In this document: positions 3,235 to 58,437 of the stretch, in pieces
Numbering within the stretch: position 1 is the stretch's first letter
Layout: each line of letters opens with the position of its first letter
NCBI GenBank assembly: GCA_964459225.1
Contig: CAYWKB010000002.1
Location: 2,016 to 66,015 of the forward strand
Origin: an uncultured Candidatus Saccharibacteria bacterium
Lineage (GTDB): Bacteria; Patescibacteriota; Minisyncoccia; Phycocordibacterales; PALSA-1337
Length of the DNA stretch: 64,000 nt
Direction: 5' to 3'
The notes under the pieces: model-generated
Seen by the model: only the letters and a program-made list of their open reading frames with translations
What the model was told of the DNA's origin: nothing
The model's database searches: none
Position numbers and translations under genes: made by a program

Positions 3235-3684
3235 ATGGAAGAAATAGTGCCAATAATGGTTGTTTTAATCGACAACGATGATGGTGTAGGATTTGCCATC
3301 GAAGCAATATTCAAGACGCTTCTAAGTGATCTTGATATATTTTTGATCAAGTACAAGAGCATGTCTGAGGCAAGACAAGTGCTTGATTTGAGGATTCCAC
3401 CCGATGCTATTATCTGGGATGGACATATTACTGACGGCATTACCACAGATAAGATCGGGGACGAGGGATCACTTATCGAGATCGCTTGCGAACAGTTCCC
3501 TGAATGTCTCATGATCGCATTTTCAAGTGATCCTGAGATACATCAAAAGCAGAGAGAGTATGGTTGCACATTGAGCTTCAGTAAGCCAATGAATTTCAAG
3601 TTGGTGATAGATACAATTAGGAGCCTCGCTCAGTCGACTGTATTGACAGAACAGGACATACCTAAAGCACAAGCAGTTGCGTGA
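3235..3684 (+). CDS. Stand-alone response-regulator receiver (REC/CheY-like) domain protein; first gene of the GC-elevated island
   Basis: LIDNDDG (acidic pocket), IIWDGH (phospho-acceptor Asp), AFSSD (T/S87 position) and SFSKP (conserved Lys) match the CheY fold. There is no output domain. GC is clearly higher than in the flanks. Confidence 0.55.
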   Translation: MEEIVPIMVVLIDNDDGVGFAIEAIFKTLLSDLDIFLIKYKSMSEARQVLDLRIPPDAIIWDGHITDGITTDKIGDEGSLIEIACEQFPECLMIAFSSDPEIHQKQREYGCTLSFSKPMNFKLVIDTIRSLAQSTVLTEQDIPKAQAVA

Positions 3685-3710
3685 CAGTTTGGTTACGCAC
3701 AAAAATCTAA

Positions 3711-3762
3711 GAACTCACCCACCCGTGTAGAAAACACGAGGTGGGTGGTTTTGTTTTTATAC
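3711..3762 (+). terminator. GC-rich hairpin plus T-run terminator, copy 1 of a repeated element (near-identical to 8261-8312)
   Basis: gaactcacccacccgtgtagaaaacacgaggtgggtggttttgtttttatac, with stem cacccacc/ggtgggtg followed by TTTTGTTTTT, immediately after the REC gene stop. Confidence 0.7.
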
Positions 3763-3959
3763 TAATCATCAAATGAAATCGGGGGTGTAGCCCAACTTTT
3801 CTTTGCGGACCGATCATACTCATCAATATCCAAATTTCTTGGTGTGGATGATTCAGGTCTCACTTGATTGTCAGGTAGTGCAACTTCACTTGACCGTAAT
3901 TCAAAATCAGCTGGAGTGAAGTATTTGAAATAATTTGAGTATTGTTTTGTGTCTACCAT
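3762..3959 (-). CDS. Hypothetical small protein (65 aa)
   Basis: The only evidence is an open frame in a GC-elevated region. No motif was recognised. Confidence 0.25.
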   Translation of the reverse strand: MVDTKQYSNYFKYFTPADFELRSSEVALPDNQVRPESSTPRNLDIDEYDRSAKKSWATPPISFDD

Positions 3960-4644: not shown

Positions 4645-4674
4645 AAAGAGGGTGCCATTCTGGACACCCTCTTT
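4645..4674. terminator. Hairpin terminator directly after the stop of ORF 4678..4959
   Basis: aaagagggtg-ccattctgga-caccctcttt, a 10-bp stem. Confidence 0.55.
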
Positions 4675-50241: not shown

Positions 50242-50688
50242 TTACTCAATATTATCTAGCATATTATTTCTTTTAATATGTCTTTCATCATTACTAAACT
50301 GTGTTGATATCCAGATCTTTACTGCTTCTTTTGCTTCTTCTTCATTTACAAAATGCGCTCCTATTGATAGTACATTTGCATTATTATGCTCTCTTGAAAG
50401 TCTTAGTATTTCAGTATTTCCTCCATAGTACACTGCTGCTCTTACACCTGGAAATCTATTGCATATCATAGCCTCACCCTGTCCTGATTTACCGAATATT
50501 ATTGCTTTTGCATTGTCATCTGATAGTAACTTCATAGCAACTGGAATCATGATTTCTGGATAATTATCGTCATTTACAAGTGTATGCGCCCCCATATCTT
50601 CAACATCAAATTTTTCACCAATTAAAAAATCCTTTACCTTGTTTTTTAAATCAAAACCCGCATGATCAGATGCTAATATTATTTTCAT
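50242..50688 (-). CDS. rpiB: Ribose-5-phosphate isomerase B
   Basis: MKIILASDHAGFDLK, RpiB/LacAB family, 148 aa. Confidence 0.85.
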   Translation of the reverse strand: MKIILASDHAGFDLKNKVKDFLIGEKFDVEDMGAHTLVNDDNYPEIMIPVAMKLLSDDNAKAIIFGKSGQGEAMICNRFPGVRAAVYYGGNTEILRLSREHNNANVLSIGAHFVNEEEAKEAVKIWISTQFSNDERHIKRNNMLDNIE

Positions 50689-50706
50689 TTAACTATTATA
50701 TATTAT

Positions 50707-52509
50707 CTAAGCCGTTAAACCAATTTGTAATTCATACAGTCTTCTGTATTCACCTCCCTCTATTTTTAGCAATTCATCATGCTTTCCTGATTCTATTATT
50801 TTTCCTTCTTTAAATACTAGTATCTTATCTGCCTTCCTTACCGTACTTAATCTATGGGCTATTATAAAAGTTGTCTTACCTTTCATGAGTTCATCAAGTG
50901 AATCAGAAATAATCTTTTCTGATCCTGCATCTAGCGCTGAAGTAGGTTCATCAAGTATTAGTATTTTAGGATTTCGAAGTATTGCTCTTGCAATTGCTAC
51001 TCTTTGCTTTTGTCCAACTGATAACTTTACACCTCTTTCACCAACCATTTGTTCCCATTTACTTGGAAATTTCATAATAAAATCATATGCATGAGCCTTT
51101 TTTGAAGCTATTTCCATTTCTTCATCAGTAGAATTAAAATTTCCGTATTTTATATTTTTCTTTATTGTATCATTAAACAAAACAACTTCCTGAGGAACTA
51201 TTGCTATACTTTCTCTTAATTTTCTTAAATTTATTTTTCTAATATCATATCCCTCTATGAGTACTTCGCCTGATACAGGAAAATGATACCCAGAAATAAG
51301 ATCGACAAGAGTACTTTTACCTACACCAGACTCACCCACTAGAGCAATAACTTCACCTGCATTAACTTTAAAATTAATATTTTGTAAAACTGGCTTATCA
51401 CTTTCATAAGAATAATTTACATTTTTAAATTCCATCTGTCCTGTAATAGATATATTTGGTGCATCTTTTGGTGCATAATTTTCAGCTGGAATTCCTAATA
51501 TATTTTCAGTCTTTTGAATATTGATTATTCCACCTTGAATACTTTGCCAATCTCTGGCAATAGACATAAATGGTCCAAATATCATTGCGGTATAAGCATT
51601 AAATGATAGTAATTCACCTAATGTCATTATTCCATTTCTAATATTAATAATTGAAATTATAAAAATACTTATTTGAGTAATTAAAATAATTATTTTTTGA
51701 TATAAACTAAGTGTACTCCATACTTTTGAAAGTCTCATCCATAGCGGTATAGATAAGGCAGATTTATTTTGTAATTTATCTCTTTCATATTCTTCGGCTG
51801 ATGATTGCTTTATAGCATGTGTATTTAAAATTGAATCATAAGCATCACCAAATAATTCTCTAACATTTTTCCTATATTCTTTATGATATTCAGCAACTGG
51901 ACGTATTTTTAAAGATAGTACAAAAATATAAATAATTAATGCAGAAACTAAAATAAATGCTAATTTAATATTTATATACATTGCAATTATCAGAGCTATT
52001 ATTATACTAAGTAACTGAGGTGCAATATCAATAACGTGCCTACCTACAATTGTTTCTAATGAATTTGCAGCAATGTTAATAGTCTCCCCTATTTCTCCCA
52101 TTTTATTTTTCTTATGAAATGAAATTGGCAAATTTAAAACATAACTAAAACCTCTTGAGAGATAGTTTAGCCATATTTTATTTGATAAATATTGACTCAT
52201 TATTTCATTTCGCCAATCAATAGTGTATGTGATAGCTTGTATAATTGCCCAAATGATTAATAGCACCGCATAAGCAGGAAGTTGATTTCCAAACAAGTCG
52301 ATTACAGTATCTGAATTAATAGAATCAAAAAACCTACCAGCAATATATGGCACGGTAGCATTACCAATGGCTGACAGTATTCCAAGGACAATAAGTACAA
52401 TCAACTGAACCTTGAATTCGGTGATGTATTTTATTATTACCTTTAGCCCTGTATATATATTGTCTTTATTAAGTTTTTCAACTTTTTCTTCTGTTTTTTC
52501 TTGAGGCAT
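50707..52509 (-). CDS. ABC exporter, fused permease plus ATPase (MsbA-like)
   Basis: 6-TM N-terminal half. Walker A GESGVGKST, signature LSVGQKQR and Walker B ILILDEPTSALD. Confidence 0.85.
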   Translation of the reverse strand: MPQEKTEEKVEKLNKDNIYTGLKVIIKYITEFKVQLIVLIVLGILSAIGNATVPYIAGRFFDSINSDTVIDLFGNQLPAYAVLLIIWAIIQAITYTIDWRNEIMSQYLSNKIWLNYLSRGFSYVLNLPISFHKKNKMGEIGETINIAANSLETIVGRHVIDIAPQLLSIIIALIIAMYINIKLAFILVSALIIYIFVLSLKIRPVAEYHKEYRKNVRELFGDAYDSILNTHAIKQSSAEEYERDKLQNKSALSIPLWMRLSKVWSTLSLYQKIIILITQISIFIISIINIRNGIMTLGELLSFNAYTAMIFGPFMSIARDWQSIQGGIINIQKTENILGIPAENYAPKDAPNISITGQMEFKNVNYSYESDKPVLQNINFKVNAGEVIALVGESGVGKSTLVDLISGYHFPVSGEVLIEGYDIRKINLRKLRESIAIVPQEVVLFNDTIKKNIKYGNFNSTDEEMEIASKKAHAYDFIMKFPSKWEQMVGERGVKLSVGQKQRVAIARAILRNPKILILDEPTSALDAGSEKIISDSLDELMKGKTTFIIAHRLSTVRKADKILVFKEGKIIESGKHDELLKIEGGEYRRLYELQIGLTA

Positions 52510-52537
52510 AGTCTAGTTATTATAGACTATTATACAC

Positions 52538-53014
52538 TTAATTTATAGAAGATCTACGAATTACAGTAAATGTAGATACGCCTATGACTAAAGTTATCAG
52601 CCAAAAGACAGCTATTAATGGTAATTGAAATATTAGAACAATAAATGAGTCACCTTTTAGAGGTACGTCATATACAATCATTCCCGCAAAAATTAACCAA
52701 ATGAGCACGACAGAGTGTAGGATTGAAGTAAAGATTAAATAAATTTTGTGTAATACGGTACCTGGCATTGATTTTAGTCTATGATGCAGGTATGAAGAAA
52801 GTATTAAACCTCCGAAATATAGTACCAAAATTAGAACAGGTCGGAAAAGTGTCATTACTAGTTGTGAAAAATTAAGACCACTAAAGTAATTGAAATAATA
52901 ACTAATACTATTAGGAAAAAATTCATTAGAAAAGAATTCACTAGAAAAAAATAATAGAGAGCCAATAAAAATCAAAATGTAATCTATAGAAAATAATGTG
53001 TTTAATTTTTTCAT
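52538..53014 (-). CDS. Hypothetical integral membrane protein (158 aa)
   Basis: Four hydrophobic helices. Nothing else recognised. Confidence 0.4.
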   Translation of the reverse strand: MKKLNTLFSIDYILIFIGSLLFFSSEFFSNEFFPNSISYYFNYFSGLNFSQLVMTLFRPVLILVLYFGGLILSSYLHHRLKSMPGTVLHKIYLIFTSILHSVVLIWLIFAGMIVYDVPLKGDSFIVLIFQLPLIAVFWLITLVIGVSTFTVIRRSSIN

Positions 53015-53127
53015 AAATTAATAATTTTATTAATCTTAGCAGTATAACACATAGAAGTATTGATTTATATAGTAGTGGATAAAAACATTTCATCATGATA
53101 AAAGCCATATGTTATGATTGAAACAAT

Positions 53128-54651
53128 ATGTATCATAAACAACTCGTAAATCATGTTTCGATGAGGCAAAAAGCGGGCATGCCAGACGATGCTATTCGCA
53201 ACGAATTAATCATGGATGGTTGGACTGAAGATGATATCAAAGTAGCTTTTTATTATAGTTCATTTCCTTTAAAACTTGGACACTTCTCTTTCTGGAGAAT
53301 ATTACACTCAGAAATACCAGCACCGATTATGATTATCTTATTAGTACTTACAGCTGTAGGAATTGGTGGTTTTTCTTATGCTTATAGCAATAAAACCCAA
53401 AACTATACAATCAATATACCAACAAATCTGCCCGAGCAACACGTTCAATTAGTATACGGTGCGCAACCAGCATTATCTGATCCTGATTTTTTTGGTAAAG
53501 TTAGGCAACAGTTTATTAGCGAAAAGGCAGACTTCATTGAAGCAAATTTAACGACAATGAAAATGCAGGTTTATAAAGAAGGTATTCTATCACTTGAAGT
53601 ACCTATTGTTACAAAAGGAAGACCTGGCTCATGGTGGGAAACTCCGGCAGGATTATATAAAGTTGAAAGTAAAGAAAAAGCACATTTTTCTGGAATGGGA
53701 CATGTATGGATGCCTTGGAGTATGAAATTTCAAGGAAACTTTTATATTCACGGTCGTACATATTATCCAGATGGCACATTGACTTCAAAAACTTATACAG
53801 GTGGTTGTATTCGCCTAGATACTGATGATGCCCAAAAAGTTTATGACATAGTAGATACCGGCACTCCAGTCCTTGTCTTTGAACAGAGTTTTACACCTGA
53901 TAACTTCACATACACAGATGCAGCCCTATCACTTTCTGCACCAATATATCTTTCTGCTGATTTACAAAACAATCACGTTTTTGCAAGTAAAAATTCTACT
54001 GAAGTTGTACCAATAGCGTCAATAACCAAACTTGTATCTGCTCTAGTGATAACAGAATACATTAACTTAGATAATACAGTCACAGTACCAAAAGCGGCGA
54101 TAATATACACATCAAAAGCAAGATTACAGCCAGGAGCACAATATACTATTTATCAACTACTCTTCCCATTACTTATGGAATCATCAAATGAGGCAGCCGA
54201 GACAATAGCTAGGTTTTACGGGCGAGATGATTTTATCAAACATATGAATGACAAGGCAGCATCTATTGGTATGACACATAGTCATTTTGATGACCCTTCT
54301 GGTGTATCGAAGGATAATATTTCTACCGCTGAAGATCTTTTTATGTTGGCAAAATACATTTATAATAATCGTAGCTTTATATTTAATATAACTTCTGGAA
54401 AACTCAAAGATAGTGCATATGGCACAAGTGGATTCCCTGATATCAATAACTTCAATGATTTCACTGAAAATGAATATTTCTTTGGTGGCAAAAATGGAAA
54501 AACGACTGCTGCAGCAGAATCAAATTTATCTGTTTTCGAATTCCCTACCGACAATACAAAAAGACCAGTTGTAACAATTGTATTAAAATCACCAAATGAA
54601 AAAAATGATTCTGAGACTTTAATAGATTATACGTTGAATCATTTTAGATAG
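53128..54651 (+). CDS. Fusion of an L,D-transpeptidase (YkuD) catalytic domain with a serine-type D-Ala-D-Ala carboxypeptidase (S11/PBP5-like) domain
   Basis: YkuD signature HGRTYYP...TGGCIRL, then SITKL (SxxK), SSNE (SxN) and KNGKT (KTG-like). N-terminal TM. Confidence 0.6.
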   Translation: MYHKQLVNHVSMRQKAGMPDDAIRNELIMDGWTEDDIKVAFYYSSFPLKLGHFSFWRILHSEIPAPIMIILLVLTAVGIGGFSYAYSNKTQNYTINIPTNLPEQHVQLVYGAQPALSDPDFFGKVRQQFISEKADFIEANLTTMKMQVYKEGILSLEVPIVTKGRPGSWWETPAGLYKVESKEKAHFSGMGHVWMPWSMKFQGNFYIHGRTYYPDGTLTSKTYTGGCIRLDTDDAQKVYDIVDTGTPVLVFEQSFTPDNFTYTDAALSLSAPIYLSADLQNNHVFASKNSTEVVPIASITKLVSALVITEYINLDNTVTVPKAAIIYTSKARLQPGAQYTIYQLLFPLLMESSNEAAETIARFYGRDDFIKHMNDKAASIGMTHSHFDDPSGVSKDNISTAEDLFMLAKYIYNNRSFIFNITSGKLKDSAYGTSGFPDINNFNDFTENEYFFGGKNGKTTAAAESNLSVFEFPTDNTKRPVVTIVLKSPNEKNDSETLIDYTLNHFR

Positions 54652-54696
54652 GAGTATTTAAGTAAACAAATACTAATCTTTTTCTTGAATCGAGCG

Positions 54697-55317
54697 CTAA
54701 CTAAATAGATTTTTAAACCAATAAATGATCTTTTGTATAAAATTTTGTTTTACTTTATTATCTGTAACTATCTGAGCTTCATTTGTTTTTGATTGAAAAT
54801 CAGATATTGGTACAATCACAGGACTTGTCTTAACTACTGGTGCAGTTTTAATTACTTTACTTAGTGTAAGTCCATTACCTAGAAAAACTAGATCCGCATT
54901 TGCTGAAACTATTTCTTTTATTTCTGTATAATTTATAAAATAAAAATTTGAACTTGTATCTTTATATGCATAAACTAGATACTCTCCTCCTACTGATTTT
55001 GGAATAAAAATAGGACATGAGTAACCGTCTAGCGCGGTAGATTTTAAGGTTACATACTCCGCAGGATTACCCTTCCAATATTTCAGAACCTTAAAAACCA
55101 TAGTACTAGTTTTCATCCTTGAACTCTCTCCTTCACCCACTATTACCTCTGTTGAAGTTGCAATCGATATTACCTTACCTGAAAATACTGAGTTTGCATT
55201 ATTAAATGATTCTTGAGGTGTTCTGTAAACAGGGGTGCAGGCAAAAGTAGTTTCAATACCTGTGAAAAAGAGTGTGGTGATTATAAGTATATAAATTATT
55301 GTTTTTTTATTTTTCAT
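54697..55317 (-). CDS. Secreted hypothetical protein. After the signal peptide the mature N-terminus is predicted to start at a Cys (…FA|CTPVY), as in TIMP/NTR-like OB-fold inhibitor domains.
   Basis: Signal peptide IIYILIITTLFFTGIETTFA, then CTPVYRTPQESFNNANSVFSGKVISI, loosely reminiscent of the TIMP N-terminal region. Speculative. Confidence 0.35.
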   Translation of the reverse strand: MKNKKTIIYILIITTLFFTGIETTFACTPVYRTPQESFNNANSVFSGKVISIATSTEVIVGEGESSRMKTSTMVFKVLKYWKGNPAEYVTLKSTALDGYSCPIFIPKSVGGEYLVYAYKDTSSNFYFINYTEIKEIVSANADLVFLGNGLTLSKVIKTAPVVKTSPVIVPISDFQSKTNEAQIVTDNKVKQNFIQKIIYWFKNLFS

Positions 55318-55340
55318 AATGTTTTCCGATTATATTATAT

Positions 55341-55413
55341 TAATTTCCCCACCTTAATAACATGCCCCACCAATATATACATATACCTCACTTCATTATC
55401 GTAACACGTAAGG
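55341..55413 (-). pseudogene. Diverged duplicate of the last about 24 codons of gap (about 75% nucleotide identity, same stop position), located downstream of the inserted gene 55415..55711
   Basis: The minus strand translates to ..CYDNEVRYMYILVGHVIKVGKLI*, compared with the gap C-terminus ..WYDNEMGYTNTLVEHVIKAGKLI*. Confidence 0.55.
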
Positions 55414-55414
55414 T

Positions 55415-55711
55415 TCATTTTACTTTTTTATCGTAAAACTTGTACATAACCAGTGCAGCGTAAGGTACTATCAGAAAGAAAAGGAATTCTTCAATTGGCA
55501 ATCCGTAAATTCGCCAACCTATCAATCCATCTCCTGGAAAAATCCAATGATGTCTGTAAGTCGCGAAGTAATCCCAGATCATTCCAAACAAGAAAATATT
55601 TAGTACAACACATAGTCTTTCTTTACGCGAGTGATAGAGGTGGATTTTATTTCTCCACTCAATCACAATTGTCACTATAAGAATTACTATGAGTATCGCT
55701 AGATATTCCAT
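55415..55711 (-). CDS. Small membrane protein with a lycopene-cyclase-domain-like motif (PxEE), 98 aa, wedged 3 nt after the gap stop
   Basis: Three TM helices and the motif YGLPIEEFLFF typical of CrtYcd-type lycopene cyclase domain proteins. Confidence 0.4.
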   Translation of the reverse strand: MEYLAILIVILIVTIVIEWRNKIHLYHSRKERLCVVLNIFLFGMIWDYFATYRHHWIFPGDGLIGWRIYGLPIEEFLFFLIVPYAALVMYKFYDKKVK

Positions 55712-55714
55712 ATT

Positions 55715-56692
55715 CTATATGAGTTTTCCAGCCTTAATTACATGTTCTACTAAAGTATTCGTATACCCCATCTCATTATCATACCAAGCTAAAACCTTCA
55801 CTAGATTCCCCCCGACAACTCTTGTAAAAGCCAAATCTGCAATTGATGCATATGAATTCCCCTTTATATCACTTGAAACCAAATCTTCATTTGTCACTGC
55901 AAATATTCCCTTCCATCTTTCTTCTTTACTTGCCTTTTCTAATATTGCATTTACTTCTTCTGCTGTTGTATTCTTTTTTGAAATAAATGTTATATCAACT
56001 ATTGAACCTACTGGTACTGGAACTCGTATTGATATACCATCGAAAAGTCCTGAGAATTTTGGCATAACTTTTGCAACCGCTGTAGCTGCGCCAGTTGATG
56101 ATGGTACTATATTTTGTGCAGCTCCTCTTCCTTCTCTCATATCCTTTTTATTTGGACCATCAACAAGAGACTGACTAGCGGTGTATGCATGAACTGTATT
56201 TAATAATGCTTTTTCTATTCCCAATGTTTCATCAAGTATTGCAATCAGAGGACTTCCTGCATTTGTTGTACATGATGCATTTGATGAGATTTTTGTTTCT
56301 TTTAATTTGTCCTCATTCATAGCCATAAGCACAGTTGGTGAATTATCATCCTTTATAGGTGCTGAAATTACCACTCTTTTTGCCCCTGCGTCTATATGTG
56401 CCTGCGCTTTTTCTGTAGCGGTATATAAACCGGTACATTCCACAACGACGTCAATATCCAAATCCTTCCATGGAAGTTTATTTGGTTCTTTTTCGCTTAT
56501 ATACTTTATACCCTCAAGATTATAGTCAGTCTTTCCATATACACTGTCATATTTAAGTAGATATTCCATGCTTTCAATGGTTCCCAAGTCATTTACCGCA
56601 ACAATTTCAATGTCTTTATTTTCCTTTGCAACCTTATAAAATGCACGTCCAATTCTTCCAAAACCATTTATTGCTACTTTAATCTTTTTCAT
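55715..56692 (-). CDS. gap: Glyceraldehyde-3-phosphate dehydrogenase (type I)
   Basis: INGFGRIGR NAD-binding start and the catalytic SNASCTTN. Confidence 0.9.
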   Translation of the reverse strand: MKKIKVAINGFGRIGRAFYKVAKENKDIEIVAVNDLGTIESMEYLLKYDSVYGKTDYNLEGIKYISEKEPNKLPWKDLDIDVVVECTGLYTATEKAQAHIDAGAKRVVISAPIKDDNSPTVLMAMNEDKLKETKISSNASCTTNAGSPLIAILDETLGIEKALLNTVHAYTASQSLVDGPNKKDMREGRGAAQNIVPSSTGAATAVAKVMPKFSGLFDGISIRVPVPVGSIVDITFISKKNTTAEEVNAILEKASKEERWKGIFAVTNEDLVSSDIKGNSYASIADLAFTRVVGGNLVKVLAWYDNEMGYTNTLVEHVIKAGKLI

Positions 56693-56754
56693 TTTATTTA
56701 TTAAATTATATAACTGTATTATACTCCCTTTTTTTGATATAATACAAATTAAAT

Positions 56755-58437
56755 ATGAATATTAAAAAATTTAAAAACAGTGTCTTTGATTTTGTCATTA
56801 AAAGAAAGATTATTTCAATAATTTTAGCGATAGTAATTATCCTAATTGGATATTGGTCATACAGGAAATTATTCCCTGCCCCAGTTATAAACAATTATGT
56901 ATTGGGTAATGCCAAAATAGCAAATATAGTTACCACAATAACAGGTACAGGACAAGTCACTGCTTCAAATCAACTAGATATTAAAAGCAAAGTGTCAGGA
57001 GACTTGGTATATCTAAATACCAAAGCAAATGGCACACAAATCAAAAAAGGCACACTAATAGCACAAGTTGATGCAAGAGATGCACTTGTGGCATTAGAGT
57101 CTGCAAGGATTGCATATGCAAAATTAACTAAACCAGCAACAGAATCAGAAATACTAAAAGCACAAAGTACGTTAAATGATGCAATAGCAACAAATAAAAA
57201 ATCATACGAAGATGCATTTAGTACAATTGCAAGTACATTTATTGATTTACCAACTGTATTAAGTGGTTTAAACGACATGTTATATACGAGTAGTGGCTAT
57301 CTTGATACAGAAAATGTTAGAAGTGTTGGTCAAAATACTGGATTAAGTTATAGAGACAAAACAACAGCAAGTTATGATAAAGCAAAGGGTCAATATGATG
57401 CCATGAGTATTAGATACAAAAATCTTTCAAGAACTAGTGATACAAGTACAATTGAAAATTTCCTAAATGACACATATTACCTAACAAAAGATGTTAGTGA
57501 AGCATTAAAAAATGCACAGAACACTGTGGACTTCCTAAGAAAACAAAAAAGCGATAGCGCAGGTACAACAGCATCAGGATATTTATCTACATGGACAAGT
57601 ACTATAAACACTGACTTAAATACCCTACTCACAATAAAGACAACAATGTTAAGTTCTGCAAATGATATAAAAGAATCAACACTCGATTTAAATGATTTAA
57701 AAGATGGTCCAGATAGTTTGGATATAAGATCAGAAAAGTTATCATTGCAACAAAAGGAAAATGCTTACGCGGATTATTTTATTCGTGCCCCATTTGACGG
57801 AGTGCTTGCTAGATTGACTGTTAAAGGCACAGATACAGTAAGTAATGGTACTGTGATAGGTACAATAGTATCTCCACAAAAAATAGCTACAATTACTTTA
57901 AACGAAGTAGATATTGAAAAAGTAAAAGTAGGACAAGTAGCGGAATTAACCTTTGATGCTGTAAACAACTTAACCATACCAGGAACAGTCACAACTGTGG
58001 ATTTGGTTGGTACAGTCACTCAGGGAGTTGTAAATTATAATGTTGAAATTTCATTAGAGGGAGATGACGCAAGAGTAAAGCCTGGTATGAGTGTTAGTGC
58101 ATCAATAATTACAGATACAAAAAACAATGTACTCACAGTTCCAAGTAGTGCCGTTAAATCACAAGGTAAAAATAGTTATGTTGAAGTATTTGATCCAGCA
58201 ATAGAAATAGTAAGAGGATCAATAGGAACACCGTCAAAAACATTGCCAACCAGAAAATCAGTAGAGACAGGTATTTCAAATGATTCACTAATAGAAATCA
58301 TTTCAGGTATAAATGAGGGCGATCAAATTGTAATTAGAACAGTCAAATCAGCAGATATAGCCAAAGCTTCTGCCACACCTCAAAAGAGTTTATTTGGAAC
58401 AGGTGGACGTGCAGTAGGAGGAGGTCAAAATAAATAA
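56755..58437 (+). CDS. Efflux ABC transporter periplasmic adaptor (membrane fusion protein, MacA/HlyD-like)
   Basis: N-terminal TM, long coiled coil, RAPFDGVLARLTVKGTDTVSNG beta-barrel region and a C-terminal Gly-rich tail. Confidence 0.8.
   Translation: MNIKKFKNSVFDFVIKRKIISIILAIVIILIGYWSYRKLFPAPVINNYVLGNAKIANIVTTITGTGQVTASNQLDIKSKVSGDLVYLNTKANGTQIKKGTLIAQVDARDALVALESARIAYAKLTKPATESEILKAQSTLNDAIATNKKSYEDAFSTIASTFIDLPTVLSGLNDMLYTSSGYLDTENVRSVGQNTGLSYRDKTTASYDKAKGQYDAMSIRYKNLSRTSDTSTIENFLNDTYYLTKDVSEALKNAQNTVDFLRKQKSDSAGTTASGYLSTWTSTINTDLNTLLTIKTTMLSSANDIKESTLDLNDLKDGPDSLDIRSEKLSLQQKENAYADYFIRAPFDGVLARLTVKGTDTVSNGTVIGTIVSPQKIATITLNEVDIEKVKVGQVAELTFDAVNNLTIPGTVTTVDLVGTVTQGVVNYNVEISLEGDDARVKPGMSVSASIITDTKNNVLTVPSSAVKSQGKNSYVEVFDPAIEIVRGSIGTPSKTLPTRKSVETGISNDSLIEIISGINEGDQIVIRTVKSADIAKASATPQKSLFGTGGRAVGGGQNK

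Follow-up and report, generated by a model that had tools for sequence, protein, structure and literature searches.

The 64,000-nucleotide stretch of DNA analysed here (hereafter, the window) comes from an uncultured Candidatus Saccharibacteria bacterium (contig CAYWKB010000002.1). It carries an intact gap gene for glyceraldehyde-3-phosphate dehydrogenase (GAPDH), followed on the same strand by a small membrane-protein gene, named lyc98 here, and by a second, diverged copy of the gap 3′ end. We refer to the end of gap, from the tryptophan codon of its WYDNE motif to the stop codon, as the gap tail. The direct repeat of this tail brackets the inserted DNA, and gap itself is intact with full-length Pfam domains. 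The features concerned are as follows (positions are those of the window).

55715-56692, minus strand: gap, glyceraldehyde-3-phosphate dehydrogenase, 325 aa, intact (Pfam Gp_dh_N, 3.7e-29; Gp_dh_C, 6.8e-55)
55715-55786, minus strand: present gap tail, the attL-like copy of the repeat; an origin of at least its 3′ part from the element is suggested by analogy with prophage attL
55415-55711, minus strand: lyc98, gene for a 98-aa lycopene-cyclase-domain membrane protein (PF18916), the cargo
55407-55414, minus strand: ACCTTACG, the 8 nt that separate the stop of lyc98 from the displaced tail, read from the sequence
55335-55406, minus strand: displaced gap tail, an attR-like remnant and pseudogene fragment with its own TAA stop (repeat search, alignment, profile)

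The gap tail, its downstream copy and lyc98

In the gap tail, the Trp codon lies at 55784-55786 and the stop, a TAG, at 55715-55717. The downstream copy opens with TGT in place of TGG (55404-55406) and closes with a TAA stop (55335-55337). A repeat search paired 55331-55406 with 55711-55786 over 76 nt without gaps, at 72% identity and a spacing of 380 nt, and a MAFFT alignment of the gap tail and the copy gave the identical register, with the two stops falling in the same place. The translations are WYDNEMGYTNTLVEHVIKAGKLI for the gap tail and CYDNEVRYMYILVGHVIKVGKLI for the copy, each followed by the stop; by our count 15 of the 23 residues are identical. The local alignment of the two tails scores 47, about 12 standard deviations (SD) above 2000 shuffles (mean 16.7, SD 2.5, maximum 30), and the next-best match to the gap tail elsewhere in the window, on either strand, scores 26. 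The preliminary description of this locus, according to which the gap 3′ end recurs colinear, in frame and with the same stop position, was thus confirmed, while its coordinates for the two copies (55341-55413 and 55715-55790) were a few bases off, the real ones being 55335-55406 and 55715-55786. It had also proposed a search for other genes with duplicated 3′ ends. Among the 91 long open reading frames (ORFs) of the window, gap was the only one with a copy of its 3′ end downstream (score 47, next 34, reverse-strand control maximum 34). The arrangement recurs in a separate assembly, made by Logan from SRR14271374, and is therefore not a quirk of one assembly.

The downstream copy is non-functional. 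It carries a Trp-to-Cys replacement in the invariant WYDNE and a Gly-to-Arg replacement in MGY. It still matches positions 10-31 of a custom hidden Markov model (HMM) of the gap C-terminus with an E-value of 1.2e-5, as computed, like all our HMM E-values, on a small custom database. Its closest counterparts are the functional tails of two related loci, L007 (77%) and L005 (76%), and an extra tail of a third, L112 tail 2 (76%); the present window tail is 83% identical to the tail of L003 and about 71-72% identical to its own downstream copy (L numbers are our handles for loci). In the reading frame of the copy, an ATG shares bases with the TGA stop of lyc98 (ATGA) and would start a 27-codon ORF, MNLTCYDNEVRYMYILVGHVIKVGKLI, at 55335-55418. 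This ORF is probably fortuitous, the ATG not being conserved in other remnants of this kind. The arm of L112 tail 4 ends in AGCTCACG, with which the 8-nt junction ACCTTACG agrees at six of eight positions, against three or four of eight for the bases upstream of gap's own tail (own count); with this slight resemblance, the junction may represent the final bases of an element's left arm.

As the preliminary description had it, a 98-aa gene of the lycopene-cyclase-domain type begins 3 nt past the gap stop (PF18916 Lycopene_cyc, 1.9e-8, 35.2 bits, cutoff 27). The gene would now be co-transcribed with gap. Its 64 homologues, at 45-82% identity, form a compact family of proteins of about 98 aa common to metagenome-assembled genomes (MAGs) of Parcubacteria and to MAGs labelled DPANN (Nanoarchaeota/Woesearchaeota). 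Members occur in organisms without an obvious carotenoid pathway. In the loci inspected (L094-L100, L128-L131) the gene often lies 3-6 nt after the stop of a housekeeping gene, gyrB or gap. The gap that it follows in L131 has no remnant. Other settings are a position ahead of rpiB (L098) and an archaeal neighbourhood with genes for ribosomal protein S17e and tRNA-intron endonuclease (L129). In L131, the palindromic motif ATAGCGATRTATCGCTAT occurs three times (3300-3829) around a gene for a 133-aa helix-turn-helix protein just downstream of lyc98.

The gyrB loci (L094-097, L128) led us to reject lyc98 itself as the cause of the target duplication. Downstream of lyc98, the gyrB end recurs at best with 16 of 18 nt (L096/L094), a match that 39 of 1000 shuffles equal, and no such match is present in L095 and L128. 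Because lyc98 homologues elsewhere sit without a duplication, the duplication belongs to the gap site and not to the lyc98 gene. In the closest relatives of the window lyc98 is absent after gap, a point that the preliminary description had proposed to check.

Extra gap tails, prophages and a gap-linked integrase clade

A scan with one genome per species returned 80 related loci with gap 49-80% identical, nearly all from MAGs of Patescibacteria (Paceibacteria/Parcubacteria). Searches with tblastn and the gap C-terminus HMM revealed extra gap tails after gap in at least 7 of these approximately 80 species, up to four in a row. On the gap strand, one extra tail each was found in the window, L003, L044 and L077, three clear ones and a decayed fourth in L013, and truncated ones in L007 and L025. 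In every case the remnant sets in at the WYDNE Trp codon, with homology reaching 2-15 nt further left in some. Most remnants extend to a stop codon, and the next ORF begins 2-30 nt beyond it. The DNA between the tails is unrelated from locus to locus and encodes small membrane proteins, AbiEii/DUF6922 toxin-antitoxin pairs and unannotated ORFs. With a TAG for the Trp codon, a frameshift and truncations among them, the remnants of the relatives are decaying and are not conserved coding sequence; a conserved copy is what the preliminary description had set against its own interpretation. Weak HMM hits in L018, L029, L033, L038, L054, L070 and L073 were considered as old remnants and discarded as false positives, since they fall in the C-terminus of rpiB. 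The event in the window is probably one case of a recurrent, integrase-linked attachment site and not a peculiarity of the 98-aa gene. A single ancestral insertion common to the window and L003 is unlikely: their cargo differs, and neutral remnants would not be expected to remain 74% identical at a GAPDH protein identity of 80%.

Downstream of gap, rpiB (followed by rpe and tkt) is found in 66 of the approximately 80 loci. The spacing between gap and rpiB, approximate as it is taken from tblastn ends, is at most 40 nt in 21 loci, 41-199 nt in 8, 200-999 nt in 22 and 1-4 kb in 15. Given this variation across loci, the gap-rpiB junction is a variable island; rpiB directly after gap is the ancestral layout, and the loci with at most 40 nt are empty sites.

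Occupied sites include complete prophages. The 40.5-kb viral contig IMGVR_UViG_3300014208_001117 opens with a complete gap, followed by phage genes and a tyrosine integrase (PF00589, 4e-21); some 370 nt past the integrase lies a gap tail, and then comes rpiB of the host. The prophage bracketed by gap and the tail measures 38 kb and encodes AAA_24, a PD-(D/E)XK nuclease, an IstB-like ATPase, a 2069-aa protein and a peptidoglycan-binding protein. From "A TGG TAT GAT" onward its two tails are identical at 57 of 58 nt, their last five codons being different; they are a classical attL/attR pair. The second viral contig, L092 (59.9 kb), contains an integrase 65% identical to the former, a small ORF, about 190 nt, an in-frame tail reading TWYSNELGYTYTLVNHVIAAGRLV to the stop, and phage replication genes. 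Because this order is a circular permutation of the prophage order, the L092 tail is a free attP with a surrogate gap end. Three more viral contigs begin in gap and continue with Sak4-like, methyltransferase/ParB, terminase and portal genes. Phage genes straight after gap were seen in L083, L084, L089, L006 and L012. The last two (5961-9031 in L006, 6143-7243 in L012) are lysogens among GTDB species-representative MAGs, with L092-like phage genes after gap, AAA_24 in L006 being 94% identical.

A metagenome scan with the integrase alignment yielded 27 loci. Among integrase relatives at least 60% identical and with at least 420 nt of sequence after the gene, 16 of 16 carry a gap tail on the same strand 373-487 nt downstream; relatives at 48% and 26% identity have no gap tail downstream. 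The integrase lies inside the bracketed DNA, adjoining the att site, in L090/L101, L092, L104-L120 and L112, and is not part of the window unit. One member of this set, L108 (1-7508), is a 7.38-kb contig that is probably circular, as its ends overlap by 127 nt. It contains the integrase and a tail without a gap body, a 54-aa membrane ORF 1 nt past the tail stop, a P-type ATPase, and a TrpR-like gene and a 359-aa gene that both have homologues, judged by eye, upstream of the L092 integrase. Without phage structural genes or recognisable conjugation genes, it is probably a small non-phage integrative element of the same gap site.

The intact elements have further parts in common. A strong, GC-rich hairpin with a T-run, typical of a terminator, directly follows the surrogate gap stop in L083 (1033-1090), L084 (937-1000), L085 (1293-1375) and L089 (125-190). 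Such a terminator would be expected to end gap transcription before the phage genes and so to uncouple rpiB-rpe-tkt from gap. The prophages have 190-350 nt of arm DNA before the attR tail. A second tail-like core was not found inside intact elements.

Proposed integration at the gap tail and its alternatives

We interpret the window, with a probability of roughly 0.78, as an integrase-less scar of site-specific integration at the gap-tail attachment site that is used by tyrosine-integrase phages and elements. Under this model, the gap 3′ end from the WYDNE Trp codon to the stop would be the chromosomal attB in Paceibacteria, used by temperate phages and smaller integrative elements that share one clade of tyrosine integrases. 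These elements would carry a surrogate gap tail (attP) beside the integrase, and recombination within the tail would join the host gap body to the tail of the element, leaving GAPDH intact. The element would thereby land between gap and its operon partner rpiB, with the native tail pushed to the far side. The window would be a minimal end-product of this process: the present tail, 3 nt, lyc98, 8 nt and the displaced native tail, with no integrase. Behind this model stand the observed repeat, its recurrence at the same boundary, the empty sites, the linkage of integrase and tail, the prophages with attL and attR and the free attP; by analogy with these, the window unit itself would have been made via the integrase/att route.

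The anatomy of the intact prophages also bears on the origin of the two copies. In integration by a single crossover, the sequence right of the shared block is that of the element in attL and that of the host in attR. A comparison of the L006 lysogen with the L092 attP revealed seven differences in the first 18 nt of the tail and only two in the remaining 50 nt or so, the L006 gap tail being nearly identical to the phage attP from GGGTAC onward and not before. In addition, the motif is WY[R/S/G/H]NE in many of the integrase-linked tails, a form that a working GAPDH would not tolerate. Both observations suggest that the exchange took place beyond the Asp codon, on its 3′ side and close to GGGTAY (Gly-Tyr). 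By analogy, the last approximately 17 codons of the window gap, together with lyc98, would have come with the element, and the 3′ part of the remnant would be the displaced native end. The preliminary description had proposed a duplication of the target that preserved the functional C-terminus while the displaced copy decayed; judged by the attL/attR anatomy of intact prophages at the same site, the present end would be the imported one and the downstream copy the native one. A native origin of the remnant fits its ending: the window and L003 remnants end in ...VGK.., as does the functional tail of the close relative L005, and both present tails end in ...AGKLI before the stop.

Differences between the copies occur at third codon positions in 12 of 20 cases in the window and 13 of 17 in L003. 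The pooled ratio of 25/37 departs from uniform change (p = 2e-5) and from a model with one decaying copy (p = 0.005), the latter being our own rough expectation of 45% third-position differences. This preference suggests that the copies diverged mostly before the insertion, as working gap ends in separate lineages, and that the incoming DNA brought its own end; some later decay of the remnant is evident, e.g., the Trp-to-Cys change. Of the originally proposed gene insertion with target duplication, the insertion at the gap 3′ end, the intact gap and the non-functional downstream copy thus stand, whereas the third-position bias speaks against duplication of the target.

Several observations weigh against an integrase-made scar. 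Neither an integrase (best tblastn E = 4) nor an excisionase or excisionase-like ORF, a phage gene or an AAA_24 homologue was found in the 64-kb window, so the unit would be tied to the integrase clade purely by analogy of site and boundary. It is far tidier than expected of a randomly decayed prophage, and it lacks the hairpin/T-run terminator and the 190-350 nt arm of the prophages. At 380 bp, it is too short for arm-type sites and thus could not act as a lambda-type attP. The crossover is placed by one lysogen/attP comparison, L006 against L092. Finally, lyc98 of L131 lies 3 nt after gap without any remnant, so adjacency of gap and lyc98 can arise without a scar.

The tidiness of the unit is best considered together with its counterparts in relatives. 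Tight junctions at both ends were observed in at least eight units (window, L003, L013, L044, L077, L112); in these tidy units the ORF begins 2-30 nt past a tail stop, and 2-8 nt past it in the window unit and several others. Its end lies inside the next tail or at most 8 nt (0-8 nt) short of it. The longest array, L112 (same element as L103), begins with an integrase, a small ORF, arm DNA, tail 1, a 115-aa membrane ORF and tail 2. It continues with a 98-aa ORF of the YWLR family (see below), a frameshifted tail 3 and about 250 nt that include a relic homologous to the arm before tail 1, and then with tail 4, a 104-aa YWLR ORF, a decayed tail start, a SIMPL-domain ORF and rpiB. The array thus mixes an element that looks live with tidy single-ORF units and with what is plainly the stump of a previous insertion from the same element family; one of its units retains a phage-arm relic, whereas the window unit has no terminator and no arm save the possible 8-nt arm end. 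Because real prophages have a terminator and arm DNA at their tails, the tidy units are not plain random-deletion products of those phages.

The strongest competitor of the scar model, itself unlikely, takes these tail-plus-ORF units as mobile in their own right: promoterless mini-cassettes with a core-only site, moved by an integrase acting in trans, expressed from the gap promoter and accumulating as in an integron array. It accounts for the tight junctions at both ends, for the absence of the terminator and arm DNA of real phages, and for the orientation of the cargo, all of which points the same way as gap. It also gains from recurrent cargo, including the AbiEii and DUF6922 toxin-antitoxin pairs of the L013 array and a family of small membrane proteins of 70-142 aa, here called YWLR, with an N-terminal KRYWLRGG, a C-terminal GWIYGKIKNR and a variable middle. 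This family was found only right after a gap tail (two genes in L013, 6613-8291; one each in L039, 6082-6384, and L044, 6036-6314; two in L112, 4723-5727), and its frames end inside the next tail in three different frames (L044, the 142-aa ORF of L013, the 98-aa ORF of L112); the 104-aa ORF of L112 appears to end in a decayed tail. A further argument is a non-gap signature, GAAGTRAGRTAT, which replaces GARATGGGGTAT in three remnants of unrelated genomes, namely the window (55378-55389), L077 (6295-6306) and L112 tail 2 (4659-4670). Its codons are GAA GTR AGR TAT ("NEVRY"), against GAR ATG GGG TAT in functional gap. The signature is in none of the 16 integrase-linked tails, which suggests either a separate family of small elements or an unexplained convergence. 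A search of viral contigs for the remnant signature TAYGAYAAYGARGTRAGRTAYA gave no hits.

Against mobile cassettes stands the lack of signs of movement in the available genomes: no circular or excised cassette was seen, and none occurs in two places at an identity above that of the host genes. No near-identical cassette was found in two genomes, and the YWLR proteins are only 27-50% identical to each other, so that cargo recurs without a sign of recent transfer. A 100-aa family, MESYNKLVRDKIPEILD, which has no Pfam match, was tried as recently transferred cargo and rejected, since its identity tracks that of gap (65-75%) and it looks vertically inherited. No integrase adjoins gap at these loci, and the upstream neighbours vary, with an HlyD/ABC transporter in the window, a sigma-factor-like ORF (by eye) in L003 and an unrelated 272-aa ORF in L077. 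The tails do not resemble attC: as single-stranded DNA, both strands of both window tails fold with -0.6 to -2.5 kcal/mol (z from -0.05 to +1.14), no better than shuffles. One of the L112 units is clearly a decayed element with a phage arm, and, as genomes of the Candidate Phyla Radiation (CPR) are compact, tight spacing by itself says little. It is doubtful, still more so than mobile cassettes as such, that Paceibacteria hold a store of tiny promoterless cassettes after gap, with the gap coding end as the site and phage-type integrases acting in trans. If they did, lyc98 would be one cassette riding the strong gap promoter.

A recombinase-independent origin is improbable. Here, a circle or loop with a foreign gap tail and lyc98, from an L131-like lineage, would have entered by a single RecA-type crossover at the conserved TGGTAYGAYAAYGARATGGGGTAYAC. 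Such a route would agree with the lack of an integrase in the window, with the nearly invariant coding stretch for WYDNEMGY across lineages and with the gap-lyc98 junction TAR-AAT-ATG, the same in L131 and the window at a gap protein identity of only 65%. However, it leaves unexplained why many independent events with unrelated cargo share a left boundary at the same codon and why one integrase clade is tied to the site in 16 of 16 cases. The shared perfect identity spans only about 26 nt, which is short for RecA-mediated exchange.

Slightly less probable again is a local duplication, in which insertion of the 98-aa gene duplicated a target of about 75 nt in situ and the copies drifted apart, one under selection and one decaying. 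The colinear, in-frame copies and the damaging Trp-to-Cys and Gly-to-Arg changes of the downstream one are what it predicts. The third-position bias, however, exceeds the expectation for one decaying copy, intact elements demonstrably bring their own tail, and lyc98 homologues after gyrB or gap elsewhere lack a significant duplication of the upstream gene end. Furthermore, the 380-bp unit has no transposase and no terminal inverted repeats at its ends, and the repeat, 72 nt long and 72% identical, contrasts with known target-site duplications, which are far shorter than 72 nt.

It is very improbable that the downstream copy is retained for a function of its own, whether it encodes a small peptide or a regulatory RNA, serves the next gene as its promoter or ribosome-binding site, or acts as a terminator. 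The 27-codon frame, the usually retained stop and the next ORF 2-30 nt later would suit such a role, but other remnants do not share the start codon, and some of them are interrupted by stops or frameshifts or are truncated. The region 54600-56900 has no Rfam family, no terminator-like site, and no promoter-like sites or, in the tails, folding above shuffles.

Known counterparts and the surrounding island

Scars of this type are already well known in other bacteria. The closest precedent is element e14 (also phage 21) in icd of Escherichia coli, where the element's own 3′ end extends icd and the native fragment is kept as a pseudogene, icdC (PMC13626634). Islands are frequent at icd, tandem arrays among them, and the same source also discusses tmRNA sites (PMC9580842). 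Common to e14 and the gap site are a tyrosine-integrase element in the 3′ end of a central-metabolism gene, a surrogate end, a functional enzyme and a displaced C-terminal pseudogene. The present case differs in its target (gap), its hosts (Patescibacteria) and its integrase clade; the window element consists of one 98-aa gene without an integrase, and its copies are 72% identical instead of near-identical.

Equally close are the streptococcal cis-mobilizable elements (CIMEs) and microCIMEs, which derive from ICESt3-type elements and for which the 3′ ends of fda, rpsI and rpmG are sites of tandem accretion, with sizes of 130-220 bp and no gene in microCIMEs and of 1.2-13 kb in classical CIMEs (PMC7563491). 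In the window, two att-like copies flank lyc98 only, with no recombination or transfer genes, and such att-flanked, integrase-less units at the 3′ end of a housekeeping (also glycolytic) gene, often in tandem with an integrase-bearing element as in L112/L103, are typical of CIMEs. CIMEs derive from conjugative or mobilizable elements, whereas the partners at gap are phages and one 7.4-kb element, and the single-ORF units of 300-500 bp are tidier, the ORF end often lying inside the next att copy. The window agrees with both precedents in structure, save for the integrase.

The same logic, with a block of identity from the crossover to the 3′ end of the gene, governs integration into tRNA and tmRNA genes. 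There, an element must carry everything 3′ of the crossover to restore its target, and remnants pile up at hot spots. The difference lies in the protein-coding target, which puts the surrogate end under codon constraint and leads to divergence biased to third positions. With integrons, the gap site has in common short, co-oriented, promoterless and mostly single-ORF units that are bounded by a site, lie downstream of a fixed point and include toxin-antitoxin cargo. It differs in that no intI lies beside the array, the site is a coding fragment and not an attC hairpin, and neither cassette circles nor shuffling have been demonstrated. The window lacks what defines an integron, and likewise what defines the target duplication of a transposon.

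Lysogeny and gene flow in Patescibacteria (CPR) are, to our knowledge, poorly understood. We found no report of gap as an attachment site in this group in the literature searched, which is not proof of novelty. The gap 3′ end is a probable attachment site that can be assigned to one particular integrase clade, since attP, attL/attR and unoccupied sites are all available, and extra gap tails between gap and rpiB provide a simple metagenome marker for prophages, their relics and their hosts. In these otherwise streamlined genomes, the gap-rpiB junction is a hypervariable island in which small membrane proteins and toxin-antitoxin genes collect. In annotation, the diverged duplication can be explained as an integration scar, and the last approximately 17 gap codons in such genomes may be phage-derived.

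In the window, gap and rpiB are about 5 kb apart, and the bracketed 380 bp are the latest recognisable layer of the island between them. Its other contents are as follows.

54697-55317, minus strand: ORF of 206 aa without a Pfam match, its N-terminal segment hydrophobic, the first gene past the displaced tail
50689-54696, both strands: rest of the variable island between gap and rpiB (ORF list, Pfam)
53128-54651, plus strand: YkuD + S11 peptidase gene, inside the island
52538-53014, minus strand: 158-aa membrane ORF, inside the island
50707-52509, minus strand: ABC transporter, inside the island
50242-50688, minus strand: rpiB, then rpe and tkt (tblastn, ORF list)

The 206-aa ORF begins 17 nt beyond the stop of the displaced tail and has no homologue among the 80 related loci. 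The gap C-terminus HMM detected no further tail remnants at 50689-54696. The 507-aa product of the gene at 53128-54651, on the strand opposite to gap, is a YkuD L,D-transpeptidase fused to an S11 D-Ala-D-Ala carboxypeptidase. The GC skew of the window turns from negative to positive at about 52-56 kb, with a second change of sign near 4 kb. The switch coincides with the divergent junction at 56693-56754 between gap (minus strand) and the HlyD/ABC transporter operon (plus strand), and could be origin-like or a mere effect of gene orientation.

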